From: Candidatus Vogelbacteria bacterium
GTDB taxonomy: Bacteria; Patescibacteriota; Minisyncoccia; Phycocordibacterales; XYD1-FULL-46-19
Assembly: GCA_016188295.1 (NCBI GenBank)
Contig: JACPIA010000011.1
Span: 3,993 to 67,992 of the forward strand
Direction of reading: 5' to 3'
DNA: 64,000 nt
The position numbers and the translations under genes were made by a program. The notes under the pieces are model-generated. The model saw nothing but the letters and a program-made list of their open reading frames with translations, searched no databases and was not told the origin of the DNA. This document shows positions 4,037 to 54,463 of the stretch, piece after piece. Numbering within the stretch: position 1 is the stretch's first letter; each line of letters begins with the position of its first letter.

Positions 4037-4498
4037 TTAGTCACGGCGTATTCGTGGCCGAGGTGATGACTGGACGACTCTCGGGTGGGTGCGATTATGC
4101 TCACGATGATCGAGGAATCGATCGATCGCTTGCGTCGCTACCCTGGCCATATTTTCTTGCCGGCGAGTCTGCTCTCTTTCCAGATCGCGTTGGTGATCCA
4201 AACGATCTCGTTGCCGGCGAGTGTATTCCCGATTCCAATCGCGTTGGTGATAATTGGCCGCTTTAGCCAAATCAACCTGATAACGATACTGCTCGGATTG
4301 CATCCGAGCGGCTGTCTGCAGGGCCTGATTCGATCCCTGCTCGGAGTATACCCCCCCGTGCAACGTCAACGCATTGGCTGTGGCGCTGTCCATTACTGGT
4401 GTTGAACTGTACCCCACCGGTTGGCCAGAATTGGAGGTAACACACCCATTCAACACCAGAACCAATCCCAACGCCATCATTACAAAGTGCTTAAACAT
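4037..4498 (-). CDS. Lipoprotein with R/Q/D/E-rich repeats (hypothetical)
   Basis: Signal peptide plus lipobox (LVLVLNGC). Internal repeated R/D/E/Q-rich segments. Local GC is clearly higher than the flanks. Confidence 0.55.
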   Translation of the reverse strand: MFKHFVMMALGLVLVLNGCVTSNSGQPVGYSSTPVMDSATANALTLHGGVYSEQGSNQALQTAARMQSEQYRYQVDLAKAANYHQRDWNREYTRRQRDRLDHQRDLEREQTRRQENMARVATQAIDRFLDHREHNRTHPRVVQSSPRPRIRRD

Positions 4499-12680: not shown

Positions 12681-13781
12681 TTAACGATTAACCGGCATTA
12701 CTAAATATTTAAACAACTTATTACCCACTCCTGAAATTAATAATGGTTTATTAACACCTGATGATTTAAGTTCTATCCGCTCAGCATCTAAAGAATTAAA
12801 AGACTCAGTTAAATATCGCGCATTTACTTTTACCTCTATCTCCTCTCCATTAGATTCATTATTAATTGAAGTGGTAGTTTGGCCGATATCTTGATTAATC
12901 GCTGACACTTCACATATTTTATTTTTAGGATTAATTAATAAATTAACATGATGAAATTTGTCAGCAAAAATTGTCGATACTTTAAGTGCTTCTGTTAACT
13001 CTAATTGAGAAATTAAAACGGTGGTTGAAAAGTTTTTTGGTATAATCTGACGATAGTCTGGGTATACCCCATCAATAATCCTTGAGGTAATTAAAAAACT
13101 AGAGTGATAAAGAGATAATTGGTTTTTATCAACCTTAATTACTATTTCCCCTTTAGCCCCTTCTATTACTCGACTAATATCATTAACATTTTTAATTGGA
13201 ATAATAATCGATGGTGTTTCATTAATTAAAGTTAAGGGGATTTTTTTCTCCGCTAATCTAAAAGAATCTGTGGAAACAAATACTAAATACTCCCCATCAT
13301 GATATAAATACACACTCGCAATCTCTGGTTTAATATCGGAGGTAGCTGAAGCATAAACTACTGATTTTAAACCAAGTAAAAATAAACTAATTGGTAAGGA
13401 AAAATTCACTCCATCAATCACTTGTGGGATAGTTGGAAAATCATCCGGTAAAAATCCTTTAATTTTAGAGTGGTGATTAAAAGTATCCACCAACACTATC
13501 CCATCCTTTAATTCAAAAGTAATAATCTCTGTTGGTGGAATAGTCCCTAATACTCCCGCAATTAATTGAGCTGGTAAACAAATTGAACCATTTTTACTAT
13601 CAAATACTGTTAAATAAAATTCCACTCCTACTTCCAAATTAGTTACCTTTAAAGTTAGTTTATTATCTTTAATTAAAAAGAAAATCGTATTAAGTATCGG
13701 TAAGGAAGAATTTTTACCAGCAATTTTTTCAATCAGTAAAATAATATTTTTTATTTCTTTGTAATTACAGGAGAATTTCAT
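12681..13781 (-). CDS. dnaN: DNA polymerase III beta sliding clamp
   Basis: 366 aa. Sits downstream of dnaA. N-terminal pattern typical of DnaN. Confidence 0.85.
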   Translation of the reverse strand: MKFSCNYKEIKNIILLIEKIAGKNSSLPILNTIFFLIKDNKLTLKVTNLEVGVEFYLTVFDSKNGSICLPAQLIAGVLGTIPPTEIITFELKDGIVLVDTFNHHSKIKGFLPDDFPTIPQVIDGVNFSLPISLFLLGLKSVVYASATSDIKPEIASVYLYHDGEYLVFVSTDSFRLAEKKIPLTLINETPSIIIPIKNVNDISRVIEGAKGEIVIKVDKNQLSLYHSSFLITSRIIDGVYPDYRQIIPKNFSTTVLISQLELTEALKVSTIFADKFHHVNLLINPKNKICEVSAINQDIGQTTTSINNESNGEEIEVKVNARYLTESFNSLDAERIELKSSGVNKPLLISGVGNKLFKYLVMPVNR

Positions 13782-13967
13782 AGTTATATTTTATATTTAA
13801 GATTTGTTATTACTATTATACTTGGGGAAAAGTGGATAACCCTTAAAAATACTTTTAAAACATAAGTTTTTATTTAAATTAATTGTGGATAATTTTAAAT
13901 AATTTTCCCCAGAAAAAATATTTTCTAAAAATAAATTAAAAATAATCATAAAGTTATCAATATAATA
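13782..13967. promoter_or_regulatory. Candidate oriC / DnaA-box cluster in the AT-rich dnaA-dnaN intergenic region
   Basis: Perfect DnaA box TGTGGATAA (13884-13892, reverse complement TTATCCACA) and near-consensus GTGGATAAC (13832-13840) in a strongly AT-rich spacer. Confidence 0.5.
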
Positions 13968-15380
13968 TTAAGAGTTATACAGTAATATCCGAATCTGATT
14001 TAACTCTTGGTTTAATAAAGAATTATTTTTAATATCGTTTTTAATCTTTTCATACGCGTGGATTACAGTGGTGTGATCACGACCACCTAATTTTTGACCA
14101 ATATAAGGGTAAGAAGTGTTAAAATCCTCACGTAAAATATACATAATTACTTGACGAGGTTTAACTACTTCTTTACGTCTAGTTTTTTCATATAACATTT
14201 TTTCATCAATATTATAAAAATCAGCAATGATCTTCATCACTTCTTTAATTGAAACTGATTTTTGGGGTTTAATTGAGTTTTTAACAATCACTTTAACTTC
14301 ATTTAAGGTTAAATCCCGTTTTTTAGCTTGTGATTGAATAATAATCGAGTTAAGAGCCCCCTCTAACTCTCGGATATTATCTTGGACAACAGAAGCTAAA
14401 TACTCAATTACCTCATCGATTGGGGTAAAACCCGTTAAAACCTTTATTTTTGAACGTAAAATAGCTAAACGTGACTCAAAATCCGGACGCGAAACATCGA
14501 CCACCATCCCCCCTTCAAAACGGGAGCGCAACCGATCTTCCAGATTAGGAATTTGTTTTGGTGGTTTATCAGAGGAAAAGATAATTTGTTTATTATTTTC
14601 ATAAAAACTATTAAATAAATGAAATAATTCTTCTTGGATCTTTTCTTTACCAGCTAAAAACTGGATGTCATCCATGATTAATAAGTCGTATTTACGATAT
14701 TTTTCTTTAAATAAGTTACCGCGATTATTTTGGAGACAACTCACAAAATCAATTAAAAAAGTCTCAGAGGTAATATAGTAAATCTTTTTTTGATCACTCA
14801 TTTTTCGGATTTGATTACCAACCGCTTGCATTAAGTGGGTTTTTCCTAATCCGGTATGACCGTAAATAAATAAAGGATTGTAATTATTACCGCCGGGATT
14901 TTTAATAATCGCTTGTGCGGCCGCACAAGCGATCTCGTTAAACGGACCAATTACTAAACTATCAAAGGTATATTTGGGGTTTAAATTACTCTCCTTGTTG
15001 ATGTAGAGCTCATTAAGGCCTAGTCCTTCATTAAAAGGGGATGTTTTGTTATAAGAGGAGTGGATTAGTCGTGGTTTATCGTCGTTTTTAGTAATCATAT
15101 ACTCAACCATTCTCACTGATGAGTAATTAGTCCGTAACGACTTAAGTATTATTTTATGATATTTATTAATTAACCAATCCCGAACAAAAGTATTGGGGAC
15201 ACTTAAGTAGATTGTCCCAGCACCATCTTGTTTAGCAATATAGGTGTTTTTAAACCAAGTGCCAAAATTTGCTTTAGAAACCTCTTGCTCAATCACCAAT
15301 AATGATTTTGACCATAAGGTATCGTTATCTGGATTCATGATGCCCTGATTATAACGACAAGCTTTAGTCAATACAAACAT
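13968..15380 (-). CDS. dnaA: Chromosomal replication initiator DnaA
   Basis: AAA+ Walker A GHTGLGKTHLMQAVGN. The C-terminal DNA-binding domain is conserved. The true start may be the internal MNPDND. Confidence 0.95.
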   Translation of the reverse strand: MFVLTKACRYNQGIMNPDNDTLWSKSLLVIEQEVSKANFGTWFKNTYIAKQDGAGTIYLSVPNTFVRDWLINKYHKIILKSLRTNYSSVRMVEYMITKNDDKPRLIHSSYNKTSPFNEGLGLNELYINKESNLNPKYTFDSLVIGPFNEIACAAAQAIIKNPGGNNYNPLFIYGHTGLGKTHLMQAVGNQIRKMSDQKKIYYITSETFLIDFVSCLQNNRGNLFKEKYRKYDLLIMDDIQFLAGKEKIQEELFHLFNSFYENNKQIIFSSDKPPKQIPNLEDRLRSRFEGGMVVDVSRPDFESRLAILRSKIKVLTGFTPIDEVIEYLASVVQDNIRELEGALNSIIIQSQAKKRDLTLNEVKVIVKNSIKPQKSVSIKEVMKIIADFYNIDEKMLYEKTRRKEVVKPRQVIMYILREDFNTSYPYIGQKLGGRDHTTVIHAYEKIKNDIKNNSLLNQELNQIRILLYNS

Positions 15381-15430
15381 TACAGATCTGTTAATAAAAA
15401 GTGGATAATTGGGTATAACTAGTAAAACTA

Positions 15431-15458
15431 TTGAATTATTATTTTAGCTGTGTATAAT
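15431..15458 (+). promoter_or_regulatory. Sigma-70-like promoter of rpmH (TTGAAT, 16-nt spacer, extended -10 TGTATAAT)
   Basis: TTGAAT at 15431-15436. TGnTATAAT ends at 15458, only about 10 nt before the rpmH ATG, so the mRNA is essentially leaderless. A DnaA box GTGGATAA lies at 15401-15408 just upstream. Confidence 0.5.
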
Positions 15459-15468
15459 CAGATCTAGT

Positions 15469-15603
15469 ATGTCTATTACCTACCAACCCAAGAAGCGTAA
15501 ACGTAAAACTACCCACGGTTTTTTAGTTCGGTCTAAAAGTAAAACTGGTAAACAGGTTTTACTTCGTCGTCGCCGTAAGGGTCGAGTTAAGTTAACGGTG
15601 TAA
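15469..15603 (+). CDS. rpmH: 50S ribosomal protein L34
   Basis: 44 aa [44 protein letters not shown], a classic L34. It is shorter than the 60-aa cutoff so it is absent from the ORF track. Confidence 0.9.
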
Positions 15604-15605
15604 TT

Positions 15606-15947
15606 ATGGCCCAGTTAGGCCGTCTTTCTCGCGAGTTGATTACACAAGTACTATCTCAAGGGGTCTCAGTTAGATCACCTTATTTTTTAGTCAAAATCGC
15701 TAAATTGAATCAATTATTACCTAATACTACTGGTTTGGCGGTAATAGTACCAGCTAAGGTGTTTAAACAAGCGGTAGTCCGTAATCGGGTTAAACGACAA
15801 ATCAGAGGCTGTTTAATTAAATTAAAAAGTAAGTTAAAGCCTGGTTATGGAACAGTGTTTTTTGGCCAAGTTGGTATAATTAAAGTGTCTCCTTCAGTAT
15901 TATTTAAGGAAATAACTAAAGCTCTACATGATCTCATCACTCTTTAA
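15606..15947 (+). CDS. rnpA: Ribonuclease P protein component
   Basis: Small basic protein in the conserved rpmH-rnpA-yidC arrangement. Confidence 0.8.
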   Translation: MAQLGRLSRELITQVLSQGVSVRSPYFLVKIAKLNQLLPNTTGLAVIVPAKVFKQAVVRNRVKRQIRGCLIKLKSKLKPGYGTVFFGQVGIIKVSPSVLFKEITKALHDLITL

Positions 15948-16638
15948 TAGTCTTTTGGTTACTCCGTTTTATAATATATTAATTATTTTGACGGGCATAA
16001 TCCCAGGGGCGGATATTGGAGTAGCGATCGTTATTTTAACTATTTTAGTTAAAATTCTTCTTTTGCCGTTATATCAACAATCACTTAAAACTCAAAAAGC
16101 TTTAAAGAAGATTGAGCCGGAATTAACTCAAATCAAAGAGAAATATAAAGACAATAAAGTTGAGCAAACTCGTTTAATTTTAGAGTTATACCAAAAATAC
16201 CAAATTCATCCCCTTTCTAGTGTCTTAATGGTTTTTATCCAAATACCGATTATTTTAGCTTTGTTTTTTGTCTTTCGTGATAGTTTGACGACCACTGGAC
16301 ACACTCTTTACTTTTTTGTGATTAAACCGGAGATTATCAGTACTCACTTTTTAGGTCTAATTGATATCACCACTAAAAGTGTATGGTTTGCCGGTTTAAC
16401 CGCTTTAACCCAAGGGATTTATTTATGGCAAACAGTCCCTAAGCCAGAAAAAAAGGAGTTAGGTCAATCATGGCAAAAAGACTTTCAACACGGGATGTCG
16501 CTCCAAATGCGCTATGGCGCGCCAGTTTTAATCTTTTTTGTTAGTTGGGGTTTTCCAATCGCTGTTTCACTTTACTGGATTACTAGTAATATATTTGCCT
16601 CCGGTTTTGAGTTGATTAAAAAACAGTTTGAAGATTAG
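15928..16638 (+). CDS. yidC: Membrane protein insertase YidC (short form)
   Basis: Multi-TM protein following rnpA. Conserved YidC/Oxa1 core. Confidence 0.85.
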   Translation: MISSLFNSLLVTPFYNILIILTGIIPGADIGVAIVILTILVKILLLPLYQQSLKTQKALKKIEPELTQIKEKYKDNKVEQTRLILELYQKYQIHPLSSVLMVFIQIPIILALFFVFRDSLTTTGHTLYFFVIKPEIISTHFLGLIDITTKSVWFAGLTALTQGIYLWQTVPKPEKKELGQSWQKDFQHGMSLQMRYGAPVLIFFVSWGFPIAVSLYWITSNIFASGFELIKKQFED

Positions 16639-43747: not shown

Positions 43748-44155
43748 TCAGGCTGGCAGATCAATCTTCTCGATCTGCCAATCATCAGGTTCCACTTGTC
43801 TCAAATATTGACTACAAAACCTAATGATCAGTTTAATCCCCTCTAGCCCTTGAGTCAGGCCTGGGTAATAGACTTTCAAGGCATCAGGTAATCCAACTTG
43901 TTCATTCATAAATCGTGCTAATTCAGCTGGAGATGCAGTACGAAGACTGTCAACCAATCCTTGTCCCAATTCATCGAGGACATGACTACTATCACCTTGG
44001 GAAAAGAAAACAAGAGACTGAGCAATCCGGCTTCGTGTCGACTGTGGAAGTCTATTGAATTGATCAACGATATAATTTAGTTCTGCTCCATGACTCCATT
44101 TCAGACGCTTTTCTTTGATTCCCAGTGACTGACACACTTCTGGTAATGTCGGCAT
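43748..44155 (-). CDS. Hypothetical protein
   Basis: 135-aa ORF. Tandem TTGACCTC direct repeats lie 35-50 nt upstream of it. Confidence 0.4.
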   Translation of the reverse strand: MPTLPEVCQSLGIKEKRLKWSHGAELNYIVDQFNRLPQSTRSRIAQSLVFFSQGDSSHVLDELGQGLVDSLRTASPAELARFMNEQVGLPDALKVYYPGLTQGLEGIKLIIRFCSQYLRQVEPDDWQIEKIDLPA

Positions 44156-46328: not shown

Positions 46329-47204
46329 ATGGCTGGGAGCGAAATTCAAAAGTTAAAACAAGAGTTTTTGGAGTACTTGGAGATTGAGCGCGGGCGGAGC
46401 GTTAAAACGGTGGAGAATTATGATCGCTACCTTACACGACTTTTTATTTTTGGTAAAGTAACTAAAATTAGTGACATTGATGACGACTTAGTGCGTCGCT
46501 TCCGCCTCACTATTAATCGTGAGAATTTAAAAAAGAACACTCAAAACTATCATTTAATCGCTTTACGCACTTTTCTTAAGTTTTTAGCTAAAAAAGGGAT
46601 TAAATCCCTCGCCCCCGAGCGCATTGAGCTCGCTAAAGTGGGTGCCCGTGAGCTTGACCTTATTACCGAGGCCGAACTTAAGCGCTTACTTGATGGTCCT
46701 AAAACTAATACCCTCTCGGGCTTGCGCGATAAAGCACTATTAGAACTCTTATTTTCCACTGGTCTACGCGTCTCGGAATTATGCTCCTTAGATCGCGACA
46801 GTATTGACCTTTCTCGCGGTGAGTTTACCATCCGTGGTAAGGGAGAGAAGGTTCGCCTCGTTTTCCTCTCTCCAGAAGCGGCGAGTTATTTAAAAAGTTA
46901 TGAGGGGAAGCGTAAGGATTTAGACGAGGCTTTATTTATTAACCCTGATGGTGGCCGGCTTAGTCCTCGCTCTATTGAGCGTTTGGTTAAAAAATATGCC
47001 ACCCAAGCCGGTATTGGCCGCCGAGTCACACCCCACACCCTCCGCCACTCCTTTGCCACTGACCTGCTCCAAAATGGGGCGGACATTAGATCAGTACAAG
47101 TGATGTTAGGTCACGCCAATATTACCACTACTCAAGTGTATACCCATGTTACCGACCGCCAACTCCGCGAGATCCACAAAAATTTTCATAATAAGAAAAA
47201 ATGA
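46329..47204 (+). CDS. Tyrosine recombinase, XerC/XerD-like
   Basis: C-terminal R..HxxR..Y motifs (HTLRHSFATDLL ... TTQVYTHV). 291 aa. Confidence 0.8.
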   Translation: MAGSEIQKLKQEFLEYLEIERGRSVKTVENYDRYLTRLFIFGKVTKISDIDDDLVRRFRLTINRENLKKNTQNYHLIALRTFLKFLAKKGIKSLAPERIELAKVGARELDLITEAELKRLLDGPKTNTLSGLRDKALLELLFSTGLRVSELCSLDRDSIDLSRGEFTIRGKGEKVRLVFLSPEAASYLKSYEGKRKDLDEALFINPDGGRLSPRSIERLVKKYATQAGIGRRVTPHTLRHSFATDLLQNGADIRSVQVMLGHANITTTQVYTHVTDRQLREIHKNFHNKKK

Positions 47205-47451: not shown

Positions 47452-48918
47452 AACTCGATGCTTAGCCTTAATTTTAGCCAATTCCCCTTCTTCTACTTCA
47501 TCTTTCTTTTCTTTTCCGCTCTCACCTAATTTTTTAAGCTCACTGTCAGATAACAGCATTAATTCTTTAGCTTTAGTCAGTAAATAATCTTTGGTATTTT
47601 TAGTTGGATCCTCTAACACCTCCTCCAATAGAGCGTGCAAGATAAAGCCGATTTTTGGTCCCGGCTTTAGTGTTAACTTCCCCATCAAGTCAGTCCCATC
47701 TAGGGCTAACATGCCAACGGAGGTAGGTGCCCGCAAAGCCTCGTCAATCATCGCTTCATATTTACGGAGGCGGTAAGGATCCTCCTTAGGGCGACCCATG
47801 CCAATGCGGTCAGCCATCCGGACATTAATCAGTTCCCAGATAAGCTCACGGCCGACATTAGCGATAATCCGCCGCACGGCCGAAAGGGTTACCTTTCCTG
47901 TATCGCTGAAAAACATATGATTCCGGACCAATTTGGTCACTGTTTCGATGGTTTTGGTCGGATATTTAAGTCTGGTCAATAATTGTTTAGCCATTTTGGC
48001 ACCCACCACTTCATGACCGTAAAAAGTGTAATCCTGTTTGATGGTATCAAAACGACGGGTTCGTGGCTTGCCGATATCGTGACAAAGCGCACTAAGCCTC
48101 ACTTCTAAACCAAACTCTTTATCTGCGGCATGTTGGAGGGCTCTCAAGGTGTGTTGCCAGACATCGTAGATGTGCTCACCGTTTTGCTCAATACCCACAC
48201 CCTCAAGCAGTTCTGGGGCCAAGTGCTCCAATAAGCCATATTGCTTTAATAATTCAAGCCCTAGCATCGGTCGGGGCGACATAATAATCTTATTAAACTC
48301 AATTTGAATGCGTTCAATGGCGATATCTTTAATTAACGGTGCTAATTTAGTCATTTGCTTGGTGGTTTCGGTTTCAATAGCAAAATCTAAACTGCAAGCT
48401 AGGCGGATACCACGCATAATTCGTAGTGGATCCTCGTTTAGACGCTTACTGGCCTCCCCCACTGTCTTAATCAACTTGTCTTTTAAGTCTTTAATCCCAC
48501 TATAAAGGTCAATCAATTCGCCGGTACTGATTCTATAAGCCAAAGCATTGATCGTAAAATCGCGGCGCGAAAGATCTTCTTCAATTGTTTGACTAAATTT
48601 AACTTCATCGGGGTGGCGCTTGTCGCTATACTTCCCTTCTTGTCTGAAGGGGGTAATTTCTAAGGTCTTAAGAGTCAAATCAGTCTCTTCTTCATTAATC
48701 ACCGTAACGGTGCCAAAGCTATTTTCATAAACCGTTTTAGGATAAAGCGCGATAATCTCCTCTGGCGTGGCATTAGTGGTGATGTCCCAGTCCTCGGGCA
48801 CGCGACCTAAAACGAGATCGCGGACACAACCGCCCACCACATAAGCTGAAAAACCCCTATCTTCCAAGGTTTTGGTTGCACGTGAAACGGTGGTAGGGAT
48901 GGGTAGCTCTAGCTTCAT
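47446..48918 (-). CDS. cca: CCA-adding tRNA nucleotidyltransferase with HD domain
   Basis: Poly(A) polymerase head motif GGCVRDLVLG. HD-domain residues in the C-terminal half. Confidence 0.8.
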   Translation of the reverse strand: MKLELPIPTTVSRATKTLEDRGFSAYVVGGCVRDLVLGRVPEDWDITTNATPEEIIALYPKTVYENSFGTVTVINEEETDLTLKTLEITPFRQEGKYSDKRHPDEVKFSQTIEEDLSRRDFTINALAYRISTGELIDLYSGIKDLKDKLIKTVGEASKRLNEDPLRIMRGIRLACSLDFAIETETTKQMTKLAPLIKDIAIERIQIEFNKIIMSPRPMLGLELLKQYGLLEHLAPELLEGVGIEQNGEHIYDVWQHTLRALQHAADKEFGLEVRLSALCHDIGKPRTRRFDTIKQDYTFYGHEVVGAKMAKQLLTRLKYPTKTIETVTKLVRNHMFFSDTGKVTLSAVRRIIANVGRELIWELINVRMADRIGMGRPKEDPYRLRKYEAMIDEALRAPTSVGMLALDGTDLMGKLTLKPGPKIGFILHALLEEVLEDPTKNTKDYLLTKAKELMLLSDSELKKLGESGKEKKDEVEEGELAKIKAKHRVK

Positions 48919-48951
48919 TGTTTCTTTATGATAGTATAAATAAGGTGATTT

Positions 48952-49023
48952 GTCCCCATGGTGAAATGGATATCACAACAGTCTTCGGAACTGTCGTTGG
49001 GGGTTCGAGTCCCTCTGGGGACA
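48952..49023 (+). tRNA. tRNA-Arg (anticodon TCG)
   Basis: Cloverleaf folded by hand. Acceptor GTCCCCA/TGGGGAC. Anticodon loop CTTCGGA. T-loop TTCGAGT. No encoded CCA. Confidence 0.8.
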
Positions 49024-49086
49024 CACTTCGATTTATCTCAGTCAATACAAACAATTAATTTATTATGATAAGATAAATTCGTTTAA

Positions 49087-49157
49087 GCGGGTATGGTTTA
49101 GTGGTAGAACACGTCCTTGCCAAGGATGAGACGGGAGTTCGATTCTCCCTACCCGCA
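49087..49157 (+). tRNA. tRNA-Gly (anticodon GCC)
   Basis: Acceptor GCGGGTA/TACCCGC. Anticodon loop TTGCCAA. T-loop TTCGATT. No encoded CCA. Confidence 0.85.
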
Positions 49158-49342
49158 CACTATTTCTATGGGCACCACCGGCAATTATGGGGATAAGTCT
49201 GGGGATAATGTGCATAACGGACAAAAGGTCTAGGACTAAAGTCTCACATAAAATCGTTATTTATCAATAAAATAAAAATTAAAGTCAATTTAAAGGTCTA
49301 AAATGGACAGTTTGTTACTTAAGTAACGTTACACGTGAAAAT

Positions 49343-49735
49343 ATGTTCAAGATTAACCCTTCAGACAAGCAAAAGATCGGTTTAAAGGGAGAAGAAGTAG
49401 CTGCTAATTACCTTAAAAGCCAAGGTTTCACTATTATCGGTCAAAATGTCTGGAATAAGTGGGGTGAGATTGATTTAGTGGCTAAACAGGGGAGTAAATG
49501 GCACTTTGTGGAGGTAAAAACAGTCACACGTGAAACATTTTCACGTGAAACTGAAGTATTTAGTCCTGAAGATCAACTCCATCCTGGTAAATTGCGTCGT
49601 TTAGCTCGGTCGGTCGAGATTTATTTATTAAAAAATAATCTAGACGAAATAGATTGGCAAATAGATGGGCTTTTGGTGTATTTAAAACCCAATAGGGAGA
49701 CGTTACACGTGGAACTAGTGGAGGATATTATTTAA
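49343..49735 (+). CDS. YraN-family (UPF0102) endonuclease-like protein
   Basis: GEEVAANYLKSQGFTIIGQNVWNKWGEIDLVA matches the YraN family. Confidence 0.7.
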   Translation: MFKINPSDKQKIGLKGEEVAANYLKSQGFTIIGQNVWNKWGEIDLVAKQGSKWHFVEVKTVTRETFSRETEVFSPEDQLHPGKLRRLARSVEIYLLKNNLDEIDWQIDGLLVYLKPNRETLHVELVEDII

Positions 49736-49759: not shown

Positions 49760-49832
49760 CGGAGTGTGGTGTAACGGCTAACATTCTCGCTTTGGGAGCG
49801 AGCGACTCAGGGTTCGAATCCCTGCACTCCGA
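49760..49832 (+). tRNA. tRNA-Pro (anticodon TGG)
   Basis: Acceptor CGGAGTG/CACTCCG. Anticodon stem CTCGC/GCGAG with loop TTTGGGA. T-arm CAGGG-TTCGAAT-CCCTG. Confidence 0.8.
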
Positions 49833-49863
49833 CTTTATTAGGTTTAAGGTATAATAAAAGTAT

Positions 49864-50047: not shown

Positions 50048-50800
50048 CTAAGATAGGGGATTAAAACTCCAAAAGTGCTCAAACATTGAGCGTAAAGTAA
50101 AGTTGACCGTAGGACTACGCAAAACAATACCAAACATCTCGTCTTTGTGATAAGAAACAAAGGCGACTTTTTGGCGGTAAGCATAAATGCCAATAGTAAA
50201 AGGGTAATCATCAACCGATAAATAACGCACCTCCTCAAACTCCTCCGGTTTAGGGAAAATTTTATAATCTCTGCGGTGGTCGCCAGTTAAATTGATGTTG
50301 ACCCGACGCAATTTGATCTCGCCGGCAATGCGCCGTGGCTCCCAGTCCTCGCGCAAAAACTCCAACATCCCTTTAGAGATTAGGTCTTTAGGGGCGGCCA
50401 GGGCCAAAATCTCGCCGGGCTTTTTAAGCATATCGTCGTAAATTTTTTCCAGCCCCAGCTTGCCCTCGTAGACGCGCACGGCGGGCTTTTTAGTTTTTTG
50501 ATTTTGGAGTGCCTCTAAGTCCGGCAAGATTTGCTTAAAAATACTCTCGCGCTGTTTTAAAAAGAGACCCACATTCTCGGGTTCCTCCATAATAAAAATT
50601 CTTTTTTTGTTATTTTGACTTTGATTGACCAGCTTTTTCTCTTGCAAACCCTTAATAATCTCGTAAATAGTGGTGCGCTTAAGTCCCGACTCACTGGCTA
50701 GGTCTTGGATAGTAGCTGGGCCCAGTTGTAGCCCAGCCACGTACAGCGCCGCCTCCTTATCACTTAAGCCTATTTTTTGTAAATAATTTTCTAATTGCAT
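50048..50800 (-). CDS. TrmB-family transcriptional regulator
   Basis: N-terminal wHTH (LYVAGLQLGPATIQDLASESGLKRTTIYEIIKGLQEKKLV) plus a C-terminal TrmB-like domain. Confidence 0.7.
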   Translation of the reverse strand: MQLENYLQKIGLSDKEAALYVAGLQLGPATIQDLASESGLKRTTIYEIIKGLQEKKLVNQSQNNKKRIFIMEEPENVGLFLKQRESIFKQILPDLEALQNQKTKKPAVRVYEGKLGLEKIYDDMLKKPGEILALAAPKDLISKGMLEFLREDWEPRRIAGEIKLRRVNINLTGDHRRDYKIFPKPEEFEEVRYLSVDDYPFTIGIYAYRQKVAFVSYHKDEMFGIVLRSPTVNFTLRSMFEHFWSFNPLS

Positions 50801-50986
50801 ATCCTTTTATTATATATCTGTCAGCTTTTTCGTCAACATAATTATTACAAAAATACCTATGAATCAAGCTATTTTAGATTAGTTTTTAAAAAATGACCAA
50901 AATTAAGACGTTTTAATAATTTTAATTTAAGCTTAAGCCAGACCTAGGTCATTGAAAACAAAATAAACCAATGGGAGGGAGAAAAT

Positions 50987-51613
50987 ATGAAGAGCATGTG
51001 GAAGTTTGTGATTACAGGCGGACCGTGCGGTGGCAAGACCTCGGTGATCAAGGCACTGCAGTGCAAGTTTGCCGGCCAAGTCGCCTTTGTGGGCGAGATG
51101 GCTACTGCGCTACTTGATGTTTTTCCGCTACCACACAGAGATGTTGTGTTCAGTTCCGACTGGCTGTACCAATTCCAGTCAGTCGTCTACGCGGCGCAAG
51201 TCGGGGCCGAAGTGGCCTGGCTCGCCTCACCTTACGAGGTGATGATCTGCGACCGCGGCCGCCTCGACGGCGCCGCCTACCTCGGCAATAAAGAAGTTTT
51301 CTGCCGCTTGGTAGGCGAAAGCGAGTCAGCGATGTTGGCAGCTTATGACTGGGTGTTCCATCTCGAGTCATTAGCTGTCCAATGTCCCGACCGGTACTTG
51401 GCGCTCAAAGCGGGTAATTCTAACCGTTACGAGAGCGTGGAGGAGGCACAAAAAGTTGACACCGCCCTCAAAGAGGCCTGGTCGGGCCATGTTAACCGTC
51501 TTGTCTTATCCGGACAGGATGATCTGGAGTCAAAAATCCAACTCATCCGCCAGGTGATTGCTGACCATCTAGCTCAACCACAAGGAGATCTGACTAATGT
51601 CTGCCACTACTAA
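50987..51613 (+). CDS. P-loop NTPase, AAA_28 / NadR-kinase-like
   Basis: Walker A ITGGPCGGKTS. About 57% GC versus about 40% background. Strong SD GGGAGGGAG. Confidence 0.55.
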   Translation: MKSMWKFVITGGPCGGKTSVIKALQCKFAGQVAFVGEMATALLDVFPLPHRDVVFSSDWLYQFQSVVYAAQVGAEVAWLASPYEVMICDRGRLDGAAYLGNKEVFCRLVGESESAMLAAYDWVFHLESLAVQCPDRYLALKAGNSNRYESVEEAQKVDTALKEAWSGHVNRLVLSGQDDLESKIQLIRQVIADHLAQPQGDLTNVCHY

Positions 51614-52088
51614 AGTTGAGATTGAGCGCAAGTGGCTCTTGAGACAAGTACCACAAGACGAGATCCGCGACTATCGACAAGTACCTTGTGTCTACATTGA
51701 CCAAGCCTACTTGCTGACGGGTAAGCGTGAGCTCCGTCTCCGTCGCTACGGCAATGCCTTTTACCTGACCGAAAAGGTGGGTAGTGGCTTGTCGCGCCAA
51801 GAGAGCGAGATCGCCATCACTCGCGAGCACTACGAGGTACTCCTGCCTCAAGCCTCCAACTTGATCCGTAAGTATCGTTTTAAGATCAAGTTAGAGGGCG
51901 GTCTCACGCTCGAGATCGACCAATATCGCGACACGCTTGCTGGCCTGGTGGTGGCTGAGTGTGAGTTTACCACCCCCGAGAGCGCCGCCCTCTTTACCCC
52001 TCCCGCCTGGTTGCCGGTAATTAAGGAGGTTACCGGCGACATCGACTACTCTAATCAGTTTCTCTCCAAATACGGTCTGCCTACTTAG
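51597..52088 (+). CDS. CYTH-domain protein (triphosphate tunnel metalloenzyme)
   Basis: N-terminal ExExK motif (KVEIERKW). 163 aa. Overlaps the upstream gene by 17 nt. GC-rich. Confidence 0.6.
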   Translation: MSATTKVEIERKWLLRQVPQDEIRDYRQVPCVYIDQAYLLTGKRELRLRRYGNAFYLTEKVGSGLSRQESEIAITREHYEVLLPQASNLIRKYRFKIKLEGGLTLEIDQYRDTLAGLVVAECEFTTPESAALFTPPAWLPVIKEVTGDIDYSNQFLSKYGLPT

Positions 52089-52131
52089 GCGGGCCTTTTC
52101 TTTATCTATCCAGCCTGCTACGATAGTAATA

Positions 52132-53253
52132 ATGAAGTATCTCCAATCATTGATTTTAATTTCCGTTTTAGTTTTAGCACCGAGCGCCGCTTGGGCGGCC
52201 GAGGCGCGGGTGGGTAAGACTTTTAATTTACCAGCGACAGCTAATTTGGCTACCAATCTTTACGCTTTAGTGGGAGATCTAAATTTGGCTGGGCCAGTAA
52301 TGGGTGATATTTTTACTGCCGCGGGGCGGACGGTGATTACGGCGCCAGTCCAGGGTGACTTATTTGTTGCTAGTGGTAATATCACGGTTACGGGGCCGGT
52401 TTATGGTGATGTTCGCGTGGTTGGTGGTACGGTGGCAATCGGTGATGAAGTGGGAGGAGATGTGGCGGTTGCCGGCGGCCAAGTCCATTTATTACCAGCC
52501 TCACGAGTGGATCAAGATGTTTTAGTGCTCGGTGGTGCGACCATTATTGATGGTTCGATCGACGGTTCTTTGAGGGCGATCGGCGGTAAGCTACTAATTA
52601 ACGGAGCCATTACTGGGCCAGTTAGTGCTCGGGTAGATGAACTAGTGCTAGGGGAGCAAGCGGTACTAAGTCAAGGGATTAATTACCAATCACCGCAGGC
52701 TTTAGTGCGGCACGTCAGAGCTCAAGTCAGTGGCGCGACCATATTTAATCAATTATCAAGTCGTTTGCCGGCGGTCTTAGCTTTAGTCGGTGTCTGGGCT
52801 TTATTTAAGTTTTTGACTTTATTAGTTTTTGCTACTTTTTTGTATGTGGTTTTGCCTCGACCGGTTGGCGCGATTGTAACTACCACTTTAACACACTTTG
52901 GCCGCTCGCTTGGAGCTGGACTGGCCACTTTGATTTTGGTCCCAGCTCTGGTTATTATCTTATCGCTGACGATTGTGGGTTTGCCCTTGGGTTTTTTTAT
53001 CACCTGTCTCTATCTAGCTTTGCTTGTTATGGCTTCGGTATTTGCTGGTTTAGTTTGTGGGGCAATACTGGAGAAATTATTTAGACGCAAAAAGGAGTAC
53101 GAACTTTCGTGGTGGGGAGTGCTCGGCGGCACGACAGCTTTGTTTATTGTTTCGCTGGTGCCGATTATCGGCTGGTTAGTTGGAATCGTTGTTTTTGTGG
53201 CTACTTTTGGCGGTTTAGCGATTACTACTTATCATCTCATCACCAAACCTTAG
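52132..53253 (+). CDS. Secreted/membrane protein with bactofilin-like beta-helical repeats and C-terminal TM helices
   Basis: Signal peptide. Repeated GDxxVxGxVxIGD-type motifs. Four C-terminal TM helices. GC-rich. Confidence 0.5.
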   Translation: MKYLQSLILISVLVLAPSAAWAAEARVGKTFNLPATANLATNLYALVGDLNLAGPVMGDIFTAAGRTVITAPVQGDLFVASGNITVTGPVYGDVRVVGGTVAIGDEVGGDVAVAGGQVHLLPASRVDQDVLVLGGATIIDGSIDGSLRAIGGKLLINGAITGPVSARVDELVLGEQAVLSQGINYQSPQALVRHVRAQVSGATIFNQLSSRLPAVLALVGVWALFKFLTLLVFATFLYVVLPRPVGAIVTTTLTHFGRSLGAGLATLILVPALVIILSLTIVGLPLGFFITCLYLALLVMASVFAGLVCGAILEKLFRRKKEYELSWWGVLGGTTALFIVSLVPIIGWLVGIVVFVATFGGLAITTYHLITKP

Positions 53254-53351
53254 TAGTGTTTGTTTGACTTTAAAACATAGCCAGTGCATACTGTTAAGGT
53301 TGTAAGTTTTTGGTCGCGTCTTACATTTATTTAATCACACTATCGAACTTT

Positions 53352-53632: not shown

Positions 53633-53677
53633 GACCAACCCCCGATCCTCTTAAAGAGGATCGGGGGTTGGTCTTTT
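53633..53677 (+). terminator. Strong intrinsic terminator of the RRM protein gene
   Basis: 18-bp perfect stem GACCAACCCCCGATCCTC/GAGGATCGGGGGTTGGTC, loop TTAAA, then TTTT. Confidence 0.8.
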
Positions 53678-54224
53678 ATAATAAAATAAATAGAGGCCGA
53701 GCATTGTGGAGCGCTCGGCCTCGGGGTGGGGGATGGGGTAAAAATCAAGCTACTGCCAGATCTCGAGAAAGATCGGGATTATAACAACTACCACAAGCGA
53801 TTTCTCCGACATGGAGACAAAAGACACCTTGGCAGTCAGTTACCGCAAATTGTCCACCGCGTATGAGCAGAGTCAGATGGCCATCGCGGTACATTTCTGG
53901 TGGATACCTAAAGGTGACCACCAAATCGACACCTTGTCTCTTCTCTGTTGCTTCGATCCGACGACTGATTTTCCGATGAAGGATTCCTGTCGCTGCTTCG
54001 ATGATTCTTGTTGCCGTGTCCCTCCTTTTTCCATCAGTATCTTCAGTAGTAGCAACCCTGGTACCCATCCTGCTTTCTCCTTATACTAACGACCTTGGCA
54101 CTTCCCCCTTCTGTCGCTTACCATCAAAAGCTACTAAAGAGTACCAAGAAGCGCCTCCAATATCTAGTTTACGCTCTCTAAACCCTTTGTCAATATTGGT
54201 TTTTCGGAGTAAAGTGGATAGCGA

Positions 54225-54295
54225 GCGAGTGTGGTTCAATGGTAGAATAACTGCCTTCCAAGCAGTAGACATGGGTCCGATCCCCATCACTCGCA
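54225..54295 (+). tRNA. tRNA-Gly (anticodon TCC)
   Basis: Acceptor GCGAGTG/CACTCGC. Anticodon stem ACTGC/GCAGT with loop CTTCCAA. T-arm ATGGG-TCCGATC-CCCAT. Confidence 0.8.
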
Positions 54296-54463
54296 CACTT
54301 GCCATGTACCGCACGGCTCTTTTGATACCCAGATTGTCTGCACTACTGTGTCTAGTATATGGGGTACTTGCCAGGCGGGTTTAACAGAATTAGTTATCCA
54401 CTTTTTCTTTTGTGGAGTGTTGACAATACCCCCTCGGGGGTATACACTTATTATGGCAATCTT

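Follow-up and report, generated by a model that had tools for sequence, protein, structure and literature searches.

The window analyzed here is a stretch of 64,000 nucleotides from a Candidatus Vogelbacteria genome (contig JACPIA010000011.1), and our subject is a segment of it rich in G+C (GC), 50950-53260, that carries three genes in the same orientation. They encode a P-loop kinase-like protein with an AAA_28 domain, an enzyme of the CYTH superfamily (triphosphate tunnel metalloenzymes, TTMs), and a membrane protein of the DUF8173 family. A gene for a TrmB-like regulator lies upstream (Table 1). The window is an ordinary chromosomal stretch of this member of the Candidate Phyla Radiation (CPR; Parcubacteria), with a GC content of 40.8%. 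Its gene content includes a penicillin-binding protein, PilB, ribosomal protein S15, the CCA-adding enzyme, a Xer-like recombinase and a tRNA cluster. A protein identical to the AAA_28 protein of the window is encoded in a metagenome-assembled genome, on Candidatus Vogelbacteria contigs assembled from runs SRR12113421/22.

Composition and boundaries of the gene pair

A preliminary description of this locus had presented the three genes as an island of about 57% GC that departs sharply from flanks of about 40% and was acquired horizontally between two tRNA genes. The rise in GC over the window mean is real, and 50950-53260 is the richest 2311-nt stretch in the window (50.5%, compared to 47.7% for the next best elsewhere). 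The value of 57% applies to the 400-nt peak at 51000-51399 (57.3%) and not to the interval as a whole. The flanks, moreover, are uneven: GC content in 2-kb windows ranges from 27%, in the dnaA/dnaN region, to 48%, and therefore "about 40%" is no flat baseline. The climb in GC starts exactly at the start of the AAA_28 gene and declines through the third gene (54.7% for AAA_28, 53.7% for CYTH and 47.7% for DUF8173).

To describe codon usage and Shine-Dalgarno (SD) sites we used the 63 open reading frames (ORFs) called in the window and counted an SD site as strong if at least 5 nt matched. GC content at third codon positions (GC3) was 0.65 for CYTH and 0.63 for AAA_28, the two highest values of the 63 (mean 0.37, standard deviation 0.09), and 0.42 for the third gene. 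When the amino acid sequence was held fixed and the window's own codon usage was applied, the synonymous residuals of the AAA_28 and CYTH genes were +0.09 and +0.11 (z 3.5 and 4.0), that is, 9-11 GC points above expectation. Both genes favor C-ending codons (CTC, GGC, GCC, ATC, GAC, TAC) plus GAG and AAG. On the other hand, the residual of the DUF8173 gene was +0.01 (z 0.4); its raised GC reflects the amino acid content of a Gly/Ala/Val-rich beta-helix and not codon choice. Deviant codon use is restricted to the first two genes, and the profile anomaly described earlier stands for these and not for the third, whose codons are native. The SD sites divide the genes in the same way. Only three of the 63 ORFs have a strong SD, and two of these are AAA_28 (GGGAGGGAG) and CYTH (AAGGAG); the third gene, to which one had also been ascribed, has none.

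The AAA_28 and CYTH genes overlap by 17 nt, and the CYTH stop codon lies inside an intrinsic terminator with a free energy of -15.7 kcal/mol (z -4.5), whose hairpin and T-run are kept in L088 and L003, the two closest relatives (loci related to that of the window carry L numbers throughout). The transcription unit is therefore AAA_28-CYTH, with the third gene beyond it, and the GC peak corresponds to a predicted self-contained bicistronic operon, 50987-52088, with its own strong ribosome-binding sites and terminator.

The earlier account of the third protein as a beta-helical membrane protein was accurate: it combines a signal peptide, a beta-helix and a helical bundle, and its AlphaFold2 (AF2) model (predicted local distance difference test score, pLDDT, 89.4) gave weak matches to beta-helix and bactofilin folds. 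Its inclusion in a three-gene island was not. We considered DUF8173 as a member of the module and rejected it on three grounds, namely its native codons, the conserved terminator before it, and its more distant homologues, which occur in unrelated contexts and do not adjoin AAA_28 or CYTH. DUF8173 is a native neighbor, unrelated to the pair.

Upstream, the divergent TrmB-like gene and the AAA_28 gene share an AT-rich control region. The promoter block of the regulator gene, GTTGACGAAAAAGCTGACAGATATATAAT (50809-50836, reverse strand), is near-identical across the loci of the Vogelbacteria clade (L003, L088) and recognizable in L008. A TGAC-N8-TGAC repeat inside GTTGACGAAAAAGCTGACAGATATATAAT could be an autoregulatory operator. 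The leader as a whole (50801-50986) showed no unusual RNA structure (z +0.9).

Three further observations concern composition and SD sites elsewhere in the window. Its strongest compositional departure is in the AT direction, at 12681-16638, where dnaN and dnaA (reverse strand) and rnpA and yidC (forward strand) have 27-30% GC and surround a minimum of the cumulative GC skew; the origin of chromosome replication probably lies here. The third-highest GC3 belongs to a 153-aa ORF with no Pfam match (4037-4498, reverse strand; GC 53.5%, GC3 0.55, synonymous residual z 2.0). The third strong SD (AAGGAG) precedes a gene for a 135-aa protein, also with no Pfam match (43748-44155, reverse strand).

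Table 1. Positions of features at the AAA_28-CYTH locus and in related CPR loci
Feature	Sequence	Position	Strand	Evidence and remarks
tRNA-Pro(tgg)	Window	49760..49833	+	ARAGORN and Rfam
TrmB-like winged helix-turn-helix regulator, 250 aa	Window	50048..50800	-	Pfam TrmB 51.6 bits; divergent from the AAA_28-CYTH pair
AT-rich divergent control region	Window	50801..50986	.	186-nt intergenic region between TrmB-like gene and AAA_28
Predicted strong sigma-70-like promoter of TrmB-like gene	Window	50836-50809	-	Consensus scan; TTGACG-16-TATAAT, 11/12
Weaker promoter-like site	Window	50893-50920	+	Consensus scan
SD site GGGAGGGAG	Window	50973..50981	+	5 nt upstream of AAA_28 ATG; conserved in relatives
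AAA_28 P-loop kinase-like protein, 208 aa	Window	50987..51613	+	Pfam AAA_28 (PF13521) 61.4 bits, cut-off 27
SD site AAGGAG	Window	51582..51587	+	Serves CYTH gene; within 3' end of AAA_28 gene
CYTH/triphosphate tunnel metalloenzyme, 163 aa	Window	51597..52088	+	Pfam CYTH (PF01928) 21.2 bits, just below cut-off of 23.2
Intrinsic terminator	Window	52074..52105	+	Terminator scan; 9-bp GC-rich stem spanning CYTH stop codon, then T-run
DUF8173/bactofilin-like protein	Window	52132..53253	+	Signal peptide, beta-helix (residues 24-205), six-helix membrane bundle; PF26514, faint PF04519
tRNA-Gly(tcc)	Window	54225..54296	+	ARAGORN and Rfam
Hammerheads	L003	5034-5088, 7068-7122	coding	Covariance model
Hammerhead	L005	7888-7962	coding	Covariance model
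Hammerhead	L008	6854-6908	coding	Covariance model
Hammerheads	L012	5131-5185, 5915-5969, 7416-7476	coding	Covariance model
Hammerheads	L014	5922-5976, 6635-6689	coding	Covariance model
Hammerheads	L015	3959-4025, 4344-4410, 4919-4973, 5744-5829, 6541-6607	coding	Covariance model
Hammerheads	L094	1846-1929, 3918-3972	coding	Covariance model
Small Cys-rich ORF	L003	6582-6905		
Small Cys-rich ORF	L012	4828-4956		
Small Cys-rich ORF	L014	5695-5889		
Small Cys-rich ORFs	L015	4066-4290, 4452-4778		

The two proteins and their fused relatives

The AAA_28 protein has a Walker A motif, GGPCGGKT, at residues 11-18, and the PE, W, FQ, CDRG and R-x-E motifs are invariant in the family alignment. Its AF2 model (pLDDT 88.4, predicted template modeling score 0.85) had 399 Foldseek matches in the PDB at E<=0.001, the best being thymidylate kinases (TMPKs) and deoxycytidine kinase (dCK), with E ~1e-7 and TM scores of 0.6-0.7. 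As modeled, the protein has a thymidylate/deoxynucleoside-kinase fold that includes the core sheet, the lid and the acceptor-binding subdomain. Compared to TMPK, dCK and the ribosylnicotinamide-kinase (RNK) domain of NadR, it shares the P-loop, a DR(x) motif and the lid Arg; it differs in its marginal sequence similarity to solved kinases (best, a TMPK at E 0.1) and in matching no NCBIfam model, and no such model exists for the AAA_28-CYTH fusion either. The label "NadR-kinase-like" given in the preliminary description is apt only at the level of the Pfam clan. The AAA_28 protein and the NadR RNK domain share a Pfam family only, the closest structures are those of thymidylate and deoxycytidine kinases, and no NadR chain was present either among the PDB sequence matches with E<=1 or among the 50 best Foldseek matches. 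A weak hint in favor of NadR comes from gut Bacilli, where the fused gene has an NrtR-type regulator (see below).

For the CYTH protein we compared a five-sequence profile with the PDB. The sole solved relative at E<=0.01 was NeuTTM of Nitrosomonas europaea, NE1496 (2FBL/3TYP), matched with an E value of 2.6e-31 over positions 1-151 of 157; the Pfam score of the single sequence falls just short of the cut-off. The domain calls made earlier for both proteins stand, as does the overlap of their genes. The ExExK motif (EIERK, residues 8-12) is invariant in the CYTH alignment and aligns with EIERK of NE1496. Residues R47, R49, K60, R67, E69, E71, E106, E121 and E123 are likewise invariant and align with the NeuTTM blocks RLR, K, SRQEYE, ELD and EVEF. 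These alignments indicate a NeuTTM-type tunnel enzyme with its catalytic residues intact, and by homology we predict a phosphohydrolase acting on inorganic triphosphate (PPPi) or on nucleoside triphosphates (NTPs). NeuTTM and CthTTM are grouped in one CYTH cluster (cluster 2) of inorganic triphosphatases (PMC8233210). The window protein matches both in size (~155-165 aa), aligns over its full length and shares the ExExK motif and the basic and acidic tunnel residues. It differs from these characterized, stand-alone enzymes in being translationally coupled to a P-loop kinase-like protein, to which it is fused in most relatives.

In 94 of the 137 related loci, AAA_28 and CYTH are encoded by one ORF of ~360 aa, which lends strong support to the suggested functional combination of the P-loop ATPase with the tunnel enzyme. 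Pfam confirmed both domains in one such protein, from Ruminococcus (WP_295126941), which RefSeq names "AAA family ATPase"; a Dialister homologue is named "CYTH domain-containing protein/thymidylate kinase" in IMG. The family comprises 2605 cluster representatives at E<=1e-3 and occurs in >569 species-level genomes. Judging from these matches, the window pair represents in split form a bacterial two-domain protein, AAA_28-CYTH, which is widespread and experimentally uncharacterized, and our literature search found no report combining CYTH with AAA_28.

The nearest described counterparts are the Arabidopsis proteins TTM1 and TTM2, a tandem of P-loop kinase and TTM described as a plant-unique cluster, with a uridine-cytidine kinase (UCK)-type kinase, an inactive tunnel (AtTTM1) and a C-terminal membrane anchor (PMC9582702). 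The order is the same, an N-terminal P-loop phosphotransferase followed by the TTM, and in both cases the tunnel domain is partnered with a nucleoside-kinase-like domain. In contrast to the plant proteins, the bacterial kinase belongs to AAA_28, with a TMPK/dCK-like fold and no PRK/UCK match, and is not a uridine-cytidine kinase; the bacterial TTM residues are intact, neither window protein has a transmembrane segment, and there are two genes here.

The surroundings of the fused gene are informative in low-GC gut Bacilli. In five loci (L044, L055, L065, L071 and L075, at ~3.4-7.1 kb of each locus) the fusion ends an operon whose first gene encodes an NrtR-type regulator (NUDIX plus NrtR_WHD). 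Thymidine kinase, one or two histidine phosphatases, or both (L065 and L071) are encoded in the same operon. One representative of each neighbor family was confirmed by Pfam. Gene content of this kind suggests salvage of nucleosides, nucleotides or NAD.

Conservation in CPR genomes and the question of acquisition

Neither tRNA abuts the pair. tRNA-Pro(tgg) ends 1154 nt before the AAA_28 gene, with a 60-aa ORF and the TrmB-like gene between them, and tRNA-Gly(tcc) starts 972 nt downstream of 53253; in this interval lie an RNA recognition motif (RRM) gene, a region with strong terminators in both directions, and a convergent ORF. The intervening genes are conserved and native. The tRNAs do not flank an island as had been proposed. 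A repeat search of 48.8-54.5 kb gave short repeats at chance level only and no direct repeat of a tRNA 3' end at a plausible boundary. The one att-like candidate, a 15/16-nt match of 51809-51824 to the 3' end of tRNA-Gly (54279-54294), was rejected; it falls inside the CYTH coding sequence. From 49.8 to 54.3 kb, neither the ORF list nor Pfam revealed an integrase or mobility gene. A Xer-like protein is the closest tyrosine recombinase, and its gene (46329-47204) lies 3.8 kb off, beyond the CCA-adding enzyme gene, tRNAs and the YraN gene.

Several features around these tRNAs are recorded here for completeness. A Rfam scan of the window at gathering thresholds gave four tRNAs and nothing else. 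The RRM gene is followed by a perfect hairpin terminator with 20-bp arms (53633-53673), and a convergent terminator (53722-53693) follows the 107-aa ORF on the reverse strand (53745-54068), which has no Pfam match and no homologue in L003. Farther upstream, at 48875-49714, a 13-nt motif, GTTACACGTGAAA, occurs five times. It contains a CACGTG palindrome, some copies form inverted pairs, and the copies sit around the tRNA-Arg/Gly cluster and in and around the YraN (UPF0102) gene; GTTACACGTGAAA may be a regulator binding site.

The gene order of the window is conserved. L003 keeps TrmB, AAA_28, CYTH, DUF8173 and RRM (90%, 72%, 74%, 74% and 92% identical to the window proteins, respectively), followed by tRNA-Gly(tcc) at the same relative position, so that this tRNA is part of conserved local synteny. 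In L088 and L089, where AAA_28 is 59% identical, the order from TrmB through RRM is kept on short contigs. The AAA_28-CYTH pair is no more alike between the window and L003 or L088 than the neighboring genes are. Shared flanks at such diverged identities of the pair indicate that it predates the split of these genomes. The neighborhood comparison thus largely went against the earlier description, since the same genes are at home in relatives.

The association with the regulator reaches farther still. A TrmB-like gene (51-56% identical) is divergent from a split AAA_28/CYTH pair in five distant CPR loci (L005, L008, L012, L014 and L015), and across these loci the pairwise identities of TrmB and AAA_28 correlate (rho 0.8). 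In most TrmB-linked CPR loci the pair is the GC3 outlier of its neighborhood (z 2.8 to 7.8), and in these SD-poor genomes it carries SD sites that few neighboring genes share. Recent horizontal acquisition is unsupported, since in distant Parcubacteria these genes again adjoin a TrmB-like regulator and show a similar excess of GC and SD. Across 43 stand-alone or split AAA_28 copies the gene averaged 5.4 GC points above its flanks (p 1e-7), with none more than 5 points poorer, and gene GC followed flank GC (r 0.82, slope 0.9). The offset was 0.7 points for the 94 fused copies, mostly from Firmicutes. An offset that recurs and tracks flank GC fits a persistent, gene-specific property and not the composition of a single foreign donor.

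The loci of CPR relatives have a further feature, hammerhead ribozymes. Complete type III motifs of the form CCGAUC|stem I-CUGAUGA-stem II-GAAA-UCGG lie upstream of AAA_28 (L005, L012, L014, L015, L094), between AAA_28 and CYTH (L008, L014, L015) and downstream of CYTH (L012, L015). In an alignment of eight sequences, pairing holds in 99% of cells and compensatory changes occur in 13 of the 15 pairs, a result reached by none of 500 shuffles. With a covariance model we found 16 hammerheads, distributed over seven distinct loci. Every one is on the coding strand, at most 3.0 kb upstream or 1.5 kb downstream of the start of AAA_28, and the Firmicutes loci have none. They fall under Rfam thresholds (HH9 21 bits vs 52), and a Rfam scan of ten relatives gave tRNAs only. 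In the window, a search with the model from eight relatives and filters off gave a best score of 11.0 bits (E 0.34), far from the pair. In the leader of the window, the hairpin GACC-UA-GGUC with UUGAAAAC after it has a loose likeness to a remnant of stem II plus GAAA; a hammerhead relic here is speculative, as the covariance model found nothing and the leader is not unusually structured. Between the TrmB-like gene and AAA_28 of the relatives, ribozyme-bounded segments contain small Cys-rich (zinc-ribbon-like) ORFs, of which the window has no counterpart.

Clustered hammerheads flanking genes in bacteria have been described in prophage regions (Perreault et al. 2011, PMC3088659). The seven CPR relatives likewise have type III hammerheads before, between and after cistrons. 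Their setting differs, since the operon is chromosomal and linked to TrmB and no phage genes are in view, and the window has no hammerhead. The exact hammerhead pattern was not found in IMG/VR, and a literature search found no report of hammerheads in CPR. The layout in the relatives would fit a long transcript that is cleaved into single-gene mRNAs.

We lean, with some reserve, toward the explanation that the GC peak is a resident, split AAA_28-CYTH operon, linked to TrmB, with persistent GC-rich, C-ending codons and SD sites and encoding nucleotide-related enzymes. A number of observations weigh against this. At +13 GC points over its flanks the window pair is in the upper tail of the family, and the offset is not universal, since GC3 of the L088 AAA_28 gene is ordinary (0.39). 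Between L014 and L015, identity is 82% for TrmB but only 51% for AAA_28 and 42% for CYTH, a discordance that hints at in-situ allele replacement, and hence some horizontal exchange, or at very fast divergence of the pair. The relatives' cistrons are flanked by hammerheads, an arrangement described mostly in prophage contexts (PMC3088659). With respect to function, the acceptor of the AAA_28 kinase is not legible from its sequence, and no conserved neighbors of the fused gene were found across Firmicutes beyond the Bacilli subset.

Some of these same observations could be taken to mean that the pair is a recent island from a higher-GC, SD-using donor, inserted between tRNA genes. The outlying codon dialect and GC3 of the pair would be expected of such an insertion, as would its holding two of the window's three strong SD sites; the discordance between L014 and L015 suggests that the pair is exchangeable, and the hammerheads recall prophage regions. 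We nevertheless regard this origin as unlikely. The same flanks accompany the pair in L003 and L088 at pair identities of 59-74%, the att-like repeats, an adjoining tRNA and a nearby recombinase other than Xer are all missing from the region searched, and over the 43 loci the GC of the gene follows that of its host at a constant offset. In addition, the third gene is native, and viral homologues are few and weak (21 AAA_28 relatives in IMG/VR, mostly at contig ends). The anomaly is a two-gene feature, and the reading of a three-gene island between tRNAs is unsupported. The pair looks like a long-resident cassette of this bacterial group and not a freshly inserted island, as far as gene order and composition allow this to be judged.

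It could also be speculated that the pair is a semi-autonomous cassette circulating among CPR, which brings its own SD sites and GC-rich codons and, in most lineages, self-cleaving hammerheads that excise its cistrons from a longer transcript. The window copy would then have lost its ribozymes, and the product would be a previously unrecognized kinase/triphosphatase pair acting on a nucleotide-like metabolite of central importance to reduced-genome bacteria that live by salvage. We consider this proposal, taken as a whole, to be doubtful.

Possible functions of the kinase and tunnel enzyme

Returning to the resident operon, we infer from domain content and operon context that the pair functions in nucleoside or nucleotide salvage. 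The TrmB-like regulator would probably control the AAA_28-CYTH pair in response to a small molecule. The kinase would phosphorylate a salvaged nucleoside or nucleotide with ATP, and the tunnel enzyme would hydrolyze a triphosphate, whether PPPi or an NTP-like compound from which it removes the terminal phosphate. Such hydrolysis may drive or limit the kinase reaction, and the two proteins may work together in a complex, like the joined domains of the fused forms.

The chief functional rival is a polyphosphate or triphosphate energy module. By analogy with the polyphosphate kinases PPK2 and PPK3, the TMPK-fold protein would either phosphorylate nucleotides at the expense of (poly/tri)phosphate or form PPPi, and the CYTH protein would trim inorganic triphosphate. 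The modeled TMPK-superfamily fold is in keeping with this, and there is a precedent: PPK3 enzymes were long annotated as thymidylate kinases and occur in an operon with the SixA histidine phosphatase, PPX and a CHAD protein (PMC12995831). Bacilli have histidine phosphatases next to the fusion, and NeuTTM, the closest solved relative of the CYTH protein, is a specific PPPi-ase (PMC8233210). However, no PPX, PPK or CHAD genes are present near the pair in the window or in related loci, the AAA_28 protein at E<=1 matches neither PPK2 nor the PPK3 structure 5h70 in sequence, and the thymidine kinase and NrtR neighbors favor nucleoside or NAD salvage. An energy module therefore appears improbable.

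Another possibility is a nucleotide second-messenger or defense module in which the CYTH protein is a CyaB-like class IV cyclase and the P-loop protein a sensor or effector. NCBI names the CYTH protein "adenylate cyclase," the CYTH superfamily does include class IV cyclases (PMC8233210), and the AAA_28 protein has a weak match to the PADLOC "Cyclase" model (E 0.015). On the other hand, none of the three proteins has a PADLOC-DB match with E under 0.01, the sole solved CYTH relative at E<=0.01 is a PPPi-ase and no cyclase, no effector genes lie nearby, and the fusion partner has the fold of a small-molecule kinase. A signaling or defense role is thus very unlikely.

The AAA_28-CYTH operon is a widespread and uncharacterized two-enzyme module, split in this genome, and the salvage mechanism given above is a proposal. 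P-loop-kinase-plus-TTM proteins have hitherto been studied in plants only, and bacteria have an analogous and very common architecture in AAA_28-CYTH, fused or split. For island prediction, the locus is a caution that a sharp anomaly in GC and codon usage may simply be characteristic of a gene family, conserved among its members, and is not by itself evidence of recent transfer. The GC3 and SD excess, together with the ribozyme-punctuated operons of CPR relatives, offers a tractable case of how SD-poor, AT-rich genomes single out genes for special expression. AAA_28-CYTH is concentrated in reduced-genome, salvage-dependent lineages, namely CPR, gut Bacilli and Clostridia, and it could therefore mark an unrecognized step in nucleoside, nucleotide or triphosphate metabolism.

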